Shown: positions 51,899 to 63,634 of the stretch, in pieces
Position numbering within the stretch: the stretch's first letter is position 1
How the letters are laid out: every line of letters begins with the position of its first letter
NCBI GenBank assembly: GCA_963701965.1
Contig: OY969695.1
Coordinates: 2,112,001 to 2,176,000, forward strand
Length of the DNA: 64,000 nucleotides
Reading direction: 5' to 3'
Source of the DNA: an uncultured Gemmatimonadales bacterium
Lineage (GTDB): Bacteria; Gemmatimonadota; Gemmatimonadetes; Gemmatimonadales; Gemmatimonadaceae
Notes under the pieces: model-generated
What the model was told of the DNA's origin: nothing
The model's database searches: none
The model's input: the letters and a program-made list of their open reading frames with translations, nothing else
Position numbers and translations under genes: made by a program

Positions 51899-52915
<1,017 letters not shown>

Positions 52916-54178: not shown

Positions 54179-55105
54179 ATGCGCCAGCTTATTCTTCCGT
54201 TCGCTCTGTGCGGTGCCCCCGCGCTCGCGCAACCCGCGCTGCAAGCGCGCGTCGCGAGCATCGCGGCGGACGCCCACGGCACCGTCTCTGTCGCGTGCCT
54301 GCTCCCAGGTACCGCGCTCAATTGCGATCTGCATCCGCACAACCATTCGCCGATGCAGTCGGTCTTCAAGTACCCGCTCGCGCTCACCGTTCTGCATCGC
54401 GCGGAAGCCGGCACGCTGCTGCCGGGTCAGCGTCCGGGCGAGGCGATCGCCGTCACCCTCGACCGGACCGTCCGCTTCTTGCCGGAAGACCGTCTTCCCG
54501 GCGCGTTCAGCCCGCTGCAGGATCGCTACCCAGACGCGAACGTCGACGTCCCGCTGCGCGAGCTCGTTCAACTCGCCGCCGGCGTCAGCGACAACGGGGC
54601 CACCGGGACGCTCCTGCGCGTGGTCGGCGGCCCAGCCGTTGTCGAGGCCTATATCCGCTCGCTGGGCGTCACGGAGTTCCAACTACAGGACGGCGAGCAC
54701 GTCCTCCAAAGCGATCCGACGGCGCAATACCGTAACTGGCTCGAGCCCGCCGCCGCTGTGCGTCTCCTCCAGCGCCTGGTCACGAATCCCCCGCTGTCGC
54801 CCGAGGCCAACGCCTTTCTCGTCGAGACGCTCACCGCTTCGGTCTCCGGTCCCCACCGTTTGCGGGCCGGACTGCCCGCGGGTACGGTGCTCGCCCACAA
54901 GACGGGGACGTCAGGGGAGCATCAGGGCAAGGCCGAAGCCACCAACGATATGGGCCTCATCACTCTGCCCGATGGTCGCCATCTCGCCGTCGCCGTCTTC
55001 GTGACCGACGCGCACGCCGACGAAGCCACGCGCGACCGTGTCATCGCCGAGATCGGCCGCGCGGTGTACGACGAGGCGCTACACACGCACGGATCTACGG
55101 AGTAG
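54179..55105 (+). CDS. bla: Class A beta-lactamase, subclass A2-like
   Basis: PMQSVFK (SxxK), SDN, omega-loop Glu (QDGE), KTGTSG and ATND. Confidence 0.9.
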   Translation: MRQLILPFALCGAPALAQPALQARVASIAADAHGTVSVACLLPGTALNCDLHPHNHSPMQSVFKYPLALTVLHRAEAGTLLPGQRPGEAIAVTLDRTVRFLPEDRLPGAFSPLQDRYPDANVDVPLRELVQLAAGVSDNGATGTLLRVVGGPAVVEAYIRSLGVTEFQLQDGEHVLQSDPTAQYRNWLEPAAAVRLLQRLVTNPPLSPEANAFLVETLTASVSGPHRLRAGLPAGTVLAHKTGTSGEHQGKAEATNDMGLITLPDGRHLAVAVFVTDAHADEATRDRVIAEIGRAVYDEALHTHGSTE

Positions 55106-59409: not shown

Positions 59410-59898
59410 CTACGTGGTCCCGTCACCCGCTGTGAGCTCAATGACATTCCCATTCAACCGCACGACTGCTGTGAACCAATAGTGCCCCGGCGATACGCCC
59501 GCGTTCTGCAGTTCCGCGGCCGAGATCTGGCCGGCAAAACGTGCGGTGGCGCCGGGGTCCAGACGAACGACGACGTCGGCCAATGGACATGTCTTGCTCC
59601 CCACGTGGTCGTAGACGGGTGATCCGGCGCGGTCCGGGGACTGATACGCGCGCATGAGCACGGCACAGCCGCCGACCAGTATGCTATCAGGCGCCGATGT
59701 GATGTTGAGCAGGGATACCGAGTCGGCCAAGACCAACGGTGATGGTGCCACGGTGATGGCGATTGACGAGTAGCGGATACCGTTCACCGTCACGGTGTTC
59801 TGGTCGCGATTGCCGGGCGCGGTCGTATCACCACACGCCGCGACCAGACTGGCAATGACCATCGTGGTGGTGCTACTGACGATTCGGAGTGGCCTCAT
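59410..59898 (-). CDS. Hypothetical lipoprotein
   Basis: Lipobox VAAC; beta-rich domain with two Cys. Confidence 0.7.
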   Translation of the reverse strand: MRPLRIVSSTTTMVIASLVAACGDTTAPGNRDQNTVTVNGIRYSSIAITVAPSPLVLADSVSLLNITSAPDSILVGGCAVLMRAYQSPDRAGSPVYDHVGSKTCPLADVVVRLDPGATARFAGQISAAELQNAGVSPGHYWFTAVVRLNGNVIELTAGDGTT

Positions 59899-60123
59899 GG
59901 CGGCAGTCCTATTTGGTATTACGGAGAACGTCGTCCCTGGTGATTCTGACAGACCTTACCTACATGACCCGAGGGCTCGTGCCCGGGTCCCGCGATCATG
60001 GTGGTCGACCCCAAAACTTTCCAGAAGTGGCGTATCGCGGCCGGGTGGTGAACGGCGGCCGGCCGATCGCGTAACTTTCGTCCCGGCTCCGATGCGGTTC
60101 GGACCTTAACGAGGGAGAACCTG

Positions 60124-60732
60124 ATGCAGTTGGATCTTCGCGGGGTGGGAGCATTTCTCGCCGCGGCTTGCGTATTGGCGCCGGGGGCGCGCGCGCAGGC
60201 ACCGGCAGCAGAACCAGCGTCCGGTCCGGACGTTGGCGCCATGGCACCCGATTTTACGCTGCCGGGCGCGACGCGGTACGGTCTGCTCAAGGGGCAGGTG
60301 CACTTGAGCGACTATCGCGGGCAGACGGTCGTGTTGGCCTTCTTCTACAAGGCGCGGACCAAAGGCTGAACGATCCAAATGGAGGCGTACCGTGATCAGT
60401 ACGCCACGCTCTTTCACAACGGCCGCAAGGTTACCGTCATCGGCATCAGTGTCGATCCGGATACCACCCTGGCCGCCTGGGCACACGAATCGGATTTTCC
60501 GATCGTCTTCGCCAGCGACAGTGGCAGCGTCATCGGCAAGCAGTATGGCGCCTACGATGCCCAGTACAAAGTCGACAACCGATCGCTGTTCGTCGTAGGG
60601 CCGGACGGGAAGGTCACGTACGTGACGAAACCGTTCAAAGTGTTGGCACCCGCCGCGTACTCCGATTTGGCGAAGGCCATCGATAAAGTCACGCCGGCAC
60701 CACCCGCTTCGGCGAGCGCGTCGGGCGGGTAG
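60124..60732 (+). CDS. Exported peroxiredoxin (BCP/AhpE-like), putative selenoprotein with UGA = Sec at codon 82
   Basis: Two track ORFs are in the same frame and separated only by TGA 60367-60369. Joined protein: APDFTLP, LAFFYKARTKG-U-TIQM, VIGISVD, FASD, NRSLFVVGPDG. Confidence 0.85.
60384..60405 (+). promoter_or_regulatory. Candidate bacterial SECIS element
   Basis: Hairpin GGCGTAC-CGTGATCA-GTACGCC, 14 nt after the UGA; GU at loop positions 2-3. Confidence 0.65.
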
Positions 60733-60737
60733 TTCGA

Positions 60738-61226
60738 CTACAACGCTTTCTTGATCGCGGCGTCAAGGTCCTGCGTGCCGCCGACTCCGGTATAGACCAC
60801 CTTACCGGCGCGATCAATGACGACGACGTACGACGTCGCGGGAGCATCATAGGCTCCCGCGGCGTTGCCGTCGGCGTCATACACGACCGGTTCCGGCATG
60901 TGATGCGCGGCGGCGTGCTTCTGCACCCTTTCGAAAGACTCGTTGATCGCTACCGCGACGGTGACAAAACGCACGCGTCCCGCGTATTTGGCCTGCGCGG
61001 CGGTCAGGGCGGGCTCGAGCTCCTTGCAGTTCGGGCACCAGGTCGCCCAGAACTCGACGAGCGTCGGTTCGGGGCCAACGAGGTGGGACAGGTCGACCGA
61101 TTTCCCATCCAACGATCGCACGAGGGCCGCCGGGGCCTTGGTCCCGAGCGCGATGCCGCCATCCTGCGCGTATACCGGCGCCGCCAGGAGAATGACGCCG
61201 GCCGTCATGAAGGTCGCAATGGACAT
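60738..61226 (-). CDS. TlpA-family thiol-disulfide oxidoreductase
   Basis: Signal peptide; EFWATWCPNC. Confidence 0.92.
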   Translation of the reverse strand: MSIATFMTAGVILLAAPVYAQDGGIALGTKAPAALVRSLDGKSVDLSHLVGPEPTLVEFWATWCPNCKELEPALTAAQAKYAGRVRFVTVAVAINESFERVQKHAAAHHMPEPVVYDADGNAAGAYDAPATSYVVVIDRAGKVVYTGVGGTQDLDAAIKKAL

Positions 61227-61234
61227 GGCAATCC

Positions 61235-61954
61235 TTAAATCAGTTGTTGGCCCGTCAGGATGAGATAGTACTCCGCGGCGCCGAGCATGATCAACGCGAA
61301 CGCGCGTTTGACCCACAGCATCCACGCGCCCGCGCGCGGGAGACGGGCCAGCGCGCCCGTCGAGAGACCGGCGACCACGAGGAACGTGCACATCCCGAGC
61401 GAGAAGACGAACAAGTAGATGAACCCCAGCACCGCGCTGTGCGTGGTACCGACCCACGTCAGGATGGCGGCCATGACCGGCGCCGAGCACGGCGCGGCCA
61501 CCAACCCCGACGCCGCGCCCATGACCAGCGCGCCAACCGCGCCGCCACCCCGTCCCGCGCCCACGGCGCGGGCCATCAGCGCTGACGGGATGGGGACAGG
61601 CATGACGTCCAGCATGACCAGGGCGAACACGATGAGGAGATTCGCCATCGCGAAGTACGCCCATGGATTCGAGCTGACGGATCCGAACAGCGTGCCCGTG
61701 AGGCCGGCCAGGAGGCCCAACGTCGCGTACACGAGCGCGAGCCCGAGGACGTAGCTCAACGTGAGCGCGAGGGGCCGCACCCGCGACCCGCCGGAGTCGC
61801 GCCCGACACTCTCGCCACCGACGATGGCCGCCGTGATGGGAATCATCGGGTAAATGCACGGCGTGAAGCTCGTGAGCACCCCGGCCCCGAAGACGAATGG
61901 CACCGCGGTCCAGGGGTGGGACGACAGCTGTGCCGCGAGTTGGGCGTGGTCCAT
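61235..61954 (-). CDS. ccdA: CcdA/DsbD-beta membrane electron transporter
   Basis: SFTPCIYPMIP and AAPCSAP. Confidence 0.9.
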   Translation of the reverse strand: MDHAQLAAQLSSHPWTAVPFVFGAGVLTSFTPCIYPMIPITAAIVGGESVGRDSGGSRVRPLALTLSYVLGLALVYATLGLLAGLTGTLFGSVSSNPWAYFAMANLLIVFALVMLDVMPVPIPSALMARAVGAGRGGGAVGALVMGAASGLVAAPCSAPVMAAILTWVGTTHSAVLGFIYLFVFSLGMCTFLVVAGLSTGALARLPRAGAWMLWVKRAFALIMLGAAEYYLILTGQQLI

Positions 61955-62069: not shown

Positions 62070-62110
62070 TAGCCAATGGGCTATTATAATCGTCAATTGG
62101 CTATTATAAT
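62070..62110 (+). promoter_or_regulatory. Repeat-rich promoter/operator of the wHTH-DUF6036 operon
   Basis: CAAT(G/T)GGCTATTATAAT twice at a 20-bp period, plus inverted TAGCCAAT/ATTGGCTA; TATAAT 7 nt before the ATG. Confidence 0.75.
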
Positions 62111-62117
62111 ACCATCA

Positions 62118-63101
62118 ATGCGCCCGACCGCCCATCCCCAGAGTGCTCTCCGCGCACCCCTGAACACGATTCTCGGCACTGAGGCTCGGGTGCGCATCAT
62201 GCGCGTCCTCGCCACGACCGATTCCCCAATGGGGCCCGGCGAGGTAGCCCGGCGCGCGGCGCTCAACCGATCTGGCGTGCGGCTCTCGCTCGCGGAGCTC
62301 GTCGCGGCGGGCCTGATTGAAACTGTCGGCAGTGGTCGCGCACTCGTTCAGCTCCGTCGTGTCCACCCGTTGACCCCGGCAATCGTCGCCCTCTTCGCCG
62401 CGGAGGCGGCACGTACCGACTCGGTGTTCGAGCAGATTCGCCGCATAGTCCATGCGAATATCCCGATGACAGACGTCCGCGCCGCATGGTTGCAAGGGCC
62501 GCTCGTCACGGGTGACGATCGGTTGGGTGACACGCTCACCGTCGGTTTGTTGGGCACCGCGGCGACCGTCGACAACGCGGCGGTGACGCTCCGCTCGGCG
62601 CTCGCTCCGCTCGCGCACTCACACGACCTGATGATCGAGGTACGGGCGTTGACCAATGCGGACCTGATGACATTGTCGGCAGCAGATCGCAGGGCCCTGG
62701 CTGACACGCTTCCGCTCCTGGGCCCACCGCCATCTGCACTCGCGGAGCCGGGCGCGCCACGAGGTCGGACGCGACCCAAACGCACGCACGCCGATCTTGA
62801 TGCCCAGGCGCTGGCGATGAGCCGTGCGGTTGCCAAGAAACTGTCCACGCACCCCGAATTGGCGTCACGTGCCCGGCGCTACATACTTGGGCGCACCCGC
62901 AAGGCGTCGGCAAGCGAACGCGCGACGCTCGAGGAGTGGGACGAGATCCTCACGACCATGTCGATCCCGCGACTCCGCCGGTTCCTCACGGATCCCGGCC
63001 CGCGCGCCACGCGACTTCGCCAGTCCCTCCCGTTCGTCGACGCGCTCTCGCAACAGGAGCGCGAAGCATTACGTAAGGCCTTGCGACCCTCGACGAGATG
63101 A
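62118..63101 (+). CDS. wHTH + degenerate nucleotidyltransferase-like + helical C-terminal domain (putative antitoxin)
   Basis: N-terminal ARVRIMRVL...GEVARRAAL; middle AAWLQGPLVTGDD; C-terminal EWDEIL...RLRQSLPF. Confidence 0.7.
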   Translation: MRPTAHPQSALRAPLNTILGTEARVRIMRVLATTDSPMGPGEVARRAALNRSGVRLSLAELVAAGLIETVGSGRALVQLRRVHPLTPAIVALFAAEAARTDSVFEQIRRIVHANIPMTDVRAAWLQGPLVTGDDRLGDTLTVGLLGTAATVDNAAVTLRSALAPLAHSHDLMIEVRALTNADLMTLSAADRRALADTLPLLGPPPSALAEPGAPRGRTRPKRTHADLDAQALAMSRAVAKKLSTHPELASRARRYILGRTRKASASERATLEEWDEILTTMSIPRLRRFLTDPGPRATRLRQSLPFVDALSQQEREALRKALRPSTR

Positions 63102-63634
63102 CTCGAGAGGAGCTCGAACACGCCATTCGGGCCGCATGTGACGTCAGCGACGACACCGAAGTTCACGTGTTCGGCTCGCAGGCGATCCTCGGACCGTTCC
63201 CTGATGCGCCGGCGAGCCTCCGTCAGTCGGTGGAGGTCGACATGGCGCCGGTGCATCGCCTCGACCAAATCGACGCGATCGACGGCGCTCTTGGCGAATT
63301 GTCGCCGTTTCACGCCACCCATGGTTTCTACGTACATGGGATTCCCGTGGAAGCGGCCACCCTCCCCGACGGCTGGCGCGGTCGGTTGGTGAAGGTGCAA
63401 AACGCCAACACGCGCCAGCGAATCGGATGGTGTTTGGCCGCGGCGGATCTCGCGGCTAGCAAGCTCGTTGCGTTCCGCGACAAAGACCGTGCATTCGTGC
63501 GCGCGTTGCTCGGCGCAAAGCTGATAGCGGCCCGCGAACTGATTGACGCACTGCTTCTGCTGCCGATTCAACCGACCGAACGCGACCGGCTCATCGTCTG
63601 GATCCGGAGCACGGCAGGCGATTTTGCGCGATGA
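63098..63634 (+). CDS. DUF6036-like nucleotidyltransferase
   Basis: LEHAIRAA, VFGSQAILG, SVEVD, LPDGWRGRL and KLVAFRDKD; ATGA coupling. Confidence 0.8.
   Translation: MTREELEHAIRAACDVSDDTEVHVFGSQAILGPFPDAPASLRQSVEVDMAPVHRLDQIDAIDGALGELSPFHATHGFYVHGIPVEAATLPDGWRGRLVKVQNANTRQRIGWCLAAADLAASKLVAFRDKDRAFVRALLGAKLIAARELIDALLLLPIQPTERDRLIVWIRSTAGDFAR

Follow-up and report, generated by a model that had tools for sequence, protein, structure and literature searches.

Positions 60124 to 60732 of the window, by which we mean the whole stretch of 64,000 nucleotides that was analyzed, hold two open reading frames (ORFs) separated by a TGA at the place where a peroxiredoxin (Prx) has its catalytic cysteine. 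Does this TGA encode selenocysteine (Sec) and, if so, what kind of peroxidase would result and which partner would reduce it?

One reading frame with a peroxiredoxin active site

The original prediction joined both ORFs into a single gene that standard gene callers would split, placed the TGA at the catalytic Cys of the Prx motif PxxxTxxC, recognized a catalytic Arg downstream, and described a mature protein devoid of Cys. The ORFs of 81 aa (60124-60369) and 117 aa (60379-60732) indeed share a common frame, which is open on both sides of a single internal TGA (Table 1), and only the 117-aa fragment is found for this genome in the protein collection. Among the best 120 matches in this collection, 111 were full-length Cys forms, 6 were fragments starting from Met86, and 3 had Trp at the column of the TGA. 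A profile search of 50% representatives yielded 73 proteins with E values of 1e-30 or lower, and many of these begin right after Sec. When 86,633 in-frame TGAs were passed through a motif and coding-score filter, 25 were retained and the Prx TGA ranked first. The location of this stop codon, right at the catalytic residue of a Prx, makes it very likely that the codon specifies selenocysteine. At the Prx locus, no promoter-like site was found and terminators showed no excess. Our search of sequencing runs found no reads of this strain and listed no RNA run; one soil DNA run (0.05 share) contained fragments of relatives only and none of this strain.

Table 1. Features of the Prx gene and of its convergent neighbors, in window positions
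Feature	Position	Strand	Basis
Shine-Dalgarno-like GAGGGAG, 6 nt before ATG	60111..60117	+	seen in sequence; function inferred
Peroxiredoxin gene, 202 aa with Sec82, AhpC/TSA fold	60124..60732	+	frame, domain, structure matches, model
Predicted Sec-pathway signal peptide, 24 aa, basic n-region, hydrophobic core, ARA/Q cut site	60124..60195	+	heuristic only
Tyr75 at the place of the usually invariant Pro of PxxxTxxC	60346..60348	+	alignment with structures, orthologs, Cys homologs
Thr79 of TxxU motif	60358..60360	+	Thr in 39 and Ser in 3 of 42 TGA orthologs
In-frame TGA, predicted selenocysteine at peroxidatic position	60367..60369	+	TGA in 42/49 orthologs, TGC/TGT in 7/49
SECIS-like hairpin, 7-bp stem and 8-nt loop, CGUGAUCA	60384..60405	+	fold and conservation
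Arg153, catalytic Arg of peroxiredoxins	60580..60582	+	aligned with solved structures; Arg in 40/40 aligned TGA orthologs
TlpA/ResA-like thioredoxin, CPNC, signal-like N-terminus, candidate reductant, convergent with Prx	60738..61226	-	Pfam Redoxin, synteny
CcdA-type membrane electron transporter (DsbD_TM only), 8 nt upstream of tlpA	61235..61954	-	PF02683 E 7.6e-49, synteny

The read-through product matched PF00578 (AhpC-TSA) over positions 1-123 of 124 (E 1.4e-28, 99.7 bits, cut-off 26), and the separate halves matched positions 1-39 and 46-123. In alignments with solved peroxiredoxins, the TGA occupied the column of the peroxidatic Cys and Arg153 that of the catalytic Arg, both as foreseen, and the sole Cys (C16) lies within the predicted signal peptide, which leaves the mature chain free of Cys. 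The motif was predicted correctly only in part: its TxxU portion is present (T79-K-G-U82) but its Pro is not, the actual residues being Y-K-A-R-T-K-G-U. The best matches among solved structures were an archaeal Prx-like protein and AhpE (E 3e-13 to 2e-9). An AlphaFold2 model of residues 32-193, built with Cys in place of Sec from a 53-row alignment, reached a pLDDT of 95 and had a Prx fold, with a TM of ∼0.8 to AhpE, Bcp, and Prx1. No Prx model of NCBIfam reached its cut-off: the best, NF040737 (PrxU), gave 66.2 bits versus 270, and the BCP/PrxQ equivalogs NF006960 and NF053650 gave 61.6 versus 140 and 44.9 versus 260, respectively. A resolving Cys was found neither in the mature chain nor in the domain of any of 80 loci retrieved by their TGA-plus-hairpin pattern (see below); one downstream Cys occurs in 2 of 42 TGA orthologs, and most Cys homologs likewise have a single Cys. 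Several homologs of 185-210 aa have Ser, Ala, Asn, or Thr at the peroxidatic column (P0150, P0161, P0163, P0166, P0167, P0183, P0198, and others), and these are possibly catalytically dead paralogs with a Prx fold.

Other genes of the window and of the genome were also inspected. An aldo-keto reductase gene (window 51903-52906, minus strand) lies in several frames, with Pfam matches on two pieces, and is either a real pseudogene or the result of assembly indels. The frame of a molybdopterin oxidoreductase gene (G000:C1:104427 onward, plus strand) is apparently lost after ∼130 codons, possibly by an assembly indel. A gene of the class A-type beta-lactamase family (window 54179-55105, plus strand; PF13354, E 9.5e-33) encodes a signal-like N-terminus. 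At window 62076-63634 (plus strand), a gene for a helix-turn-helix (HTH) protein overlaps by ATGA with a DUF6036 nucleotidyltransferase gene, a pair that we take to resemble the toxin-antitoxin layout of an HTH protein plus a nucleotidyltransferase. Divergent from the Prx gene, a 162-aa lipoprotein-like ORF (window 59410-59898, minus strand) had no Pfam or NCBIfam match and was not seen beside the Prx orthologs of other genomes.

Selenocysteine machinery and hairpin in TGA-bearing genomes

The predicted recoding, with a SECIS directly 3' of the UGA, called for the Sec machinery in this genome and for relatives with Cys or a conserved TGA and hairpin. The genome carries selA, selB (over the curated cut-off), selD, and a tRNA-Sec gene that adjoins selD. 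The selD gene (G000:C1:354852-355975, minus strand), directly upstream of tRNA-Sec, likewise has an in-frame TGA where the catalytic Cys would be, and the loop of its hairpin also starts with C-G, 16 nt after the SelD UGA. The 30 SelD loci that we read comprised 25 with TGA and 5 with Cys, in genomes with selA and selB. SelD was the only other selenoprotein found in the genome: no TGA lies within the other PF00578, PF00085, PF02627, and PF04879 matches, and PF10262 and PF00255 had no match. Two in-frame-TGA scans of the genome missed SelD, and thus these scans were not exhaustive.

We then compared 61 loci from 61 genomes of the same genus, family, and order (30 returned and 31 further top matches, G012 being left out). 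One locus ends before the Sec column, and 60 were scored. With a threshold of at least 48% identity, set after seeing the data, 49 of the 60 loci were orthologs, 42 with TGA and 7 with TGC or TGT at the column; these genomes are kin, so the ortholog counts do not represent independent events. The remaining 11 loci encode Cys proteins, 10 in one clade and one distant Prx. Matches to selA, selB, and selD were found in 49, 45, and 48 of the 61 relatives, whereas the type strain Gemmatimonas aurantiaca T-27 was scored negative for the Sec trait in the accessible portion of a 2016 table. Ten genomes had no match to any of the three sel genes; none of them had the TGA form, and all 7 Cys orthologs sit within these 10 genomes (81-100% complete). 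Among the 42 TGA genomes, 36 matched selA, selB, and selD (two selB matches being partial), five missed one gene, and one, 85% complete, had a partial selD only. Five near-complete genomes (G008, G035, G040, G043, and G053; 95-99%) had selB and selD and no TGA ortholog with this query, which weakens the idea that the Prx is the sole reason why the lineage keeps Sec. Scanning one genome per species for the TGA-plus-hairpin pattern gave at least 120 stretches, a set that may overlap the 61 genomes, and 76 of the 80 titles listed for these matches name Gemmatimonadota groups. The Sec-Prx gene has been called as fragments although its motif matches at least 120 places, and our results correct this systematic annotation gap.

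The hairpin had been described as a 7-bp stem with its loop 21 nt after the UGA and GU near the 5' side of the loop. Indeed, 60384-60390 pairs with 60399-60405 around an 8-nt loop, in which GU occupies positions 2-3. The stability of the hairpin was not above that of shuffles (z = -0.1 to -1.8 in this 67% GC genome), and a loose SECIS filter was passed by 72 of the 741 coding-like in-frame TGAs of the genome. Thus, we rejected stability as evidence and relied on conservation instead. A 20-nt hairpin core was identical in 40 of the 42 TGA genes, the other two having one loop base changed, and in none of the 7 Cys genes. The folding energy ranged from -8.4 to -10.3 kcal/mol in TGA genes versus -0.8 to -4.5 kcal/mol in Cys genes. 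The eight hairpin residues are conserved in one of the Cys genes, with other codons. Two TGA genes were too short for this alignment; in the other 40, the hairpin codons of A88, Y89, Q92, and Y93 never changed, R90 was CGT in 39 and D91 was GAT in 39; other conserved residues used their commonest codon in 40-92% of the same genes, and CGT and GAT account for 6.5% of Arg and 32% of Asp codons in the genome. Gln85 was CAA in 36 of the 40 genes (genome usage, 21%) and CAG in Cys genes, and the signal may therefore reach beyond the 5' side of the stem. The outer pair covaries: 41 of 42 TGA genes have a Watson-Crick pair there (22 G-C, 16 C-G, 3 U-A), compared with 43% predicted by the margins. Such a pair was present in 2 of 7 Cys genes and, against an expectation of 24%, in only 54 of the 80 pattern loci, 18 of which have A-A. 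A 13-row subset gave the same picture of hairpin conservation. The hairpin is under selection at the RNA level and is frozen at synonymous sites only in TGA-bearing orthologs. An Rfam search returned only a chance miRNA match (E 0.19). Passages of an earlier survey define bacterial candidates by a conserved stem-loop just 3' of the UGA with a G in a small apical loop (PMC1088965), and such a stem-loop is present in the Prx gene.

Together, the sel genes and the shared conservation of TGA and hairpin support the recoding that was originally proposed. The UGA is almost certainly decoded as selenocysteine: we would expect, with nearly full confidence, that SelB recognizes the hairpin that follows the UGA and brings in Sec-tRNA, yielding Sec82. 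We consider it very improbable that translation truly ends at the TGA, that the TGA arose from a sequencing error or a pseudogene lesion, or that it is read as Trp or Cys, as the same TGA and hairpin recur in 42 genomes and in at least 120 pattern matches, the frames are open on both sides, the TGA tracks the Sec genes, and neither half has a redox residue. Such readings could draw on the lone 117-aa fragment, on the Trp of the three database homologs, and on the nearby aldo-keto reductase gene, whose split over several frames means that the assembly may contain errors. The Trp, though, would most simply reflect translation of TGA under another code, and against reassignment in this genome, TGA ends ordinary genes here too and a tRNA-Sec with a UCA anticodon exists.

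Loss of the active-site proline

The Pro of PxxxTxxC, described as absolutely conserved in passages of PMC3322552, is absent from 35 of the 42 TGA orthologs, which have Phe (20), Tyr (13), Val (1), or Ile (1) in its place; the other 7 keep it. Pro was likewise absent from 71 of 79 Sec pattern loci. It was kept in all Cys orthologs (7 of 7), in the 11 further Cys loci without exception, and in 110 of the 111 Cys homologs. Among the 50% representatives, 112 proteins have Cys at the peroxidatic column and 106 of these have Pro; some of the exceptions are non-Prx proteins or doubtful alignments. A literature search on Pro substitution in Prx listed nothing relevant. We built a quick tree of 59 rows, in which the 10 Cys paralogs formed one clade (SH-aLRT 99); 27 of its 56 inner branches are open, and we do not give the direction and number of Sec/Cys and Pro changes.

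It is tempting to speculate that Sec, being more reactive, depends less on the Pro by which a Cys active site is shaped. More broadly, this could be a phylum-wide periplasmic one-Sec peroxidase with neither resolving residue nor Pro, in which selenium makes the Pro dispensable and a TlpA fed by CcdA acts as direct reductant, a tentative reading to which we give somewhat less than an even chance. If true, lineages without Sec machinery use a Cys form of the enzyme that invariably has Pro, and the family would represent a natural experiment (Sec/Cys by Pro/aromatic) on why enzymes use selenium. Because Pro loss is almost confined to Sec forms, comparing four variants could directly test what a peroxiredoxin gains from selenium.

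Predicted export, candidate reductants, and relation to known systems

A hydrophobic core and an AxA-Q-like site were recognized in 45 of the 47 orthologs with a full N-terminus by a heuristic other than SignalP, and the predicted signal peptide very probably takes the Prx to the periplasm. We disfavored a lipoprotein reading of C16, since Cys occurs there in three close genus members and is not conserved across orthologs.

Downstream of the Prx gene lie tlpA and ccdA (Table 1), a pair that the original prediction overlooked. The best NCBIfam match of the TlpA-like protein was ResA, under the cut-off. A tlpA gene, mostly with ccdA, convergently adjoins 19 of the 42 Sec genes, across all three families sampled. 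It was seen beside none of the 7 Cys orthologs and not seen beside 23 of the 42 Sec genes; as the flanks covered only 0.15-1.5 kb, 19 of 42 is a lower bound. In many family-1 genomes, tlpA is far away or on another contig. Among the 10 Cys paralogs, 5 are immediately preceded by ccdA and/or tlpA in the same orientation. A tlpA ortholog is present in 54 of the 61 genomes, including those without the Sec trait. Other arrangements were also observed. In three family-3 genomes (L029, L038, and L041), a gene for a WCGD monothiol thioredoxin-like protein, with no obvious signal peptide, lies directly upstream on the same strand, ∼300-930 nt before the Sec codon; its product is another candidate redox partner of the Sec-Prx. 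In several family-1 genomes (L019, L023, L030, L042, and L044), the Sec or Cys Prx gene lies upstream of what we presume, from its sequence, to be a glycerate kinase-like gene, which takes the place of ccdA-tlpA and is usually accompanied by a divergent gene for a glycine-zipper lipoprotein.

By analogy, the ccdA-tlpA neighborhood suggests recycling as for the Caulobacter protein PprX. From Prx chemistry, the Sec82 selenolate, assisted by Thr79 and Arg153, would probably attack the hydroperoxide and be converted to a selenenic acid. In the absence of a resolving Cys, the CPNC motif of TlpA would attack the selenenic acid directly, form a mixed selenenylsulfide and then resolve it, and CcdA would re-reduce TlpA from cytoplasmic thioredoxin. 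Sec resists overoxidation, which would be useful for a one-residue enzyme in the envelope. Taken as a whole, the chain in which TlpA, fed by CcdA, reduces the selenenic acid directly is moderately favored by the gene neighborhood and the likeness to PprX. Likewise, we lean toward a predicted periplasmic single-Sec peroxidase recycled by the neighboring CcdA-TlpA as the best overall description of the locus.

Two other readings keep Sec and export. The exported Sec peroxidase might instead depend for its recycling on a small thiol or on some other reductant of the envelope, with ccdA-tlpA serving cytochrome c maturation, as CcdA/TlpA pairs commonly do. We regard this as unlikely, while giving it real weight: tlpA was not seen in the flanks of many Sec genes or of any Cys ortholog, is convergent to the Prx gene rather than cotranscribed with it, and is widespread regardless of the Prx; the genome encodes several other AhpC-TSA/TlpA-like proteins; and the closest solved sequences include the 1-Cys enzyme AhpE, which is recycled through mycothiol. 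The title of PDB entry 5id2 mentions mycothiol. What speaks against another reductant is that an exported Prx fills the tlpA-adjacent slot in two separate arrangements, that of the Sec gene and that of the Cys paralog. Less probable still is an exported selenoprotein that is no longer a general peroxidase, its site being reshaped by the aromatic residue in place of Pro and by a basic loop for a specific substrate or a redox relay. Thr or Ser and the Arg are retained, the close Cys orthologs have the full PxxxTxxC and are labeled peroxiredoxin Q/BCP by one source, and 7 of the 42 Sec forms keep Pro, all of which argue against this reading, even though most Sec forms have Phe or Tyr at this position, no NCBIfam Prx model reached its cut-off, and PrxL is a Prx-like envelope protein without peroxidase activity according to passages of PMC3322552.

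The TxxU peroxiredoxins are listed as an experimentally verified selenoprotein family, whose motif is given as PxxxTxxU in the sections consulted of PMC13188914 and PMC9312934. Excerpts of surveys report 43 Sec-Prx genes (PF00578/COG1225, TxxU) from the Sargasso Sea in 2005 (PMC1088965), 253 in GOS in 2008 (PMC2398784), and 91 in 78 organisms in 2016 (PMC5029168). In the passages searched, Sec-Prx reviews and surveys do not mention export, the missing resolving Cys, or Gemmatimonadota. The portion examined of GOS Dataset S1 (PMC2398784) contains three reads of the present clade written with U, two of them without Pro, and both Pro-less entries start after the signal peptide. A neighboring entry of the same portion, from another Sec-Prx clade, also looks signal-peptide-bearing. 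The gene family may be listed in BSepDB 2026, whose screened genomes include Gemmatimonadota according to parts of PMC13326102; a term search of the accessible deep-Sep supplements (PMC12013277) gave no match. We found no paper on this clade, its export, or its Pro loss in a literature search that left subscription journals largely outside its coverage. The clade is already present in published selenoprotein catalogues and represents neither a new recoding mechanism nor a new selenoprotein family.

PrxU of Eubacterium acidaminophilum (NF040737; Sohling 2001) shares a Sec, shown there by experiment, at the peroxidatic position and gave the best NCBIfam match; the present protein differs by its predicted signal peptide and by the lack of a second redox residue and, with 66 bits versus a cut-off of 270, is therefore not a PrxU. 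The 1-Cys enzyme AhpE (PDB 1xxu and 5id2) resembles it by ∼31% identity, a TM of ∼0.8, and a single redox residue, but AhpE and archaeal Bcp (2ywn and 3hjp) are distant Cys enzymes with Pro and without signal peptide. A functional parallel is the ScsB-TlpA-PprX envelope peroxide pathway of Caulobacter crescentus, as presented in passages of PMC3322552, in which an exported BCP/PrxQ-like Prx probably receives its electrons from a TlpA-like thioredoxin and a DsbD-family transporter. PprX itself is a Cys protein with full PXXXTXXC, a resolving Cys, and the transporter ScsB, whereas the Prx described here combines a predicted Sec with no resolving residue, no Pro, and CcdA. With the TxxU Sec-Prx family it shares PF00578, TxxU, a hairpin directly 3' of the UGA, and Cys homologs, and it departs from the PxxxTxxU given in the consulted sections of the 2026 review (PMC13188914) by Tyr75. 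Family membership is assigned by domain and TxxU; the Pro of the strict motif is absent, and the assignments to PrxU, BCP, and PprX failed. Altogether, we would classify the protein as a Pro-less, single-Sec, and presumably exported variant of the known Sec-Prx family.
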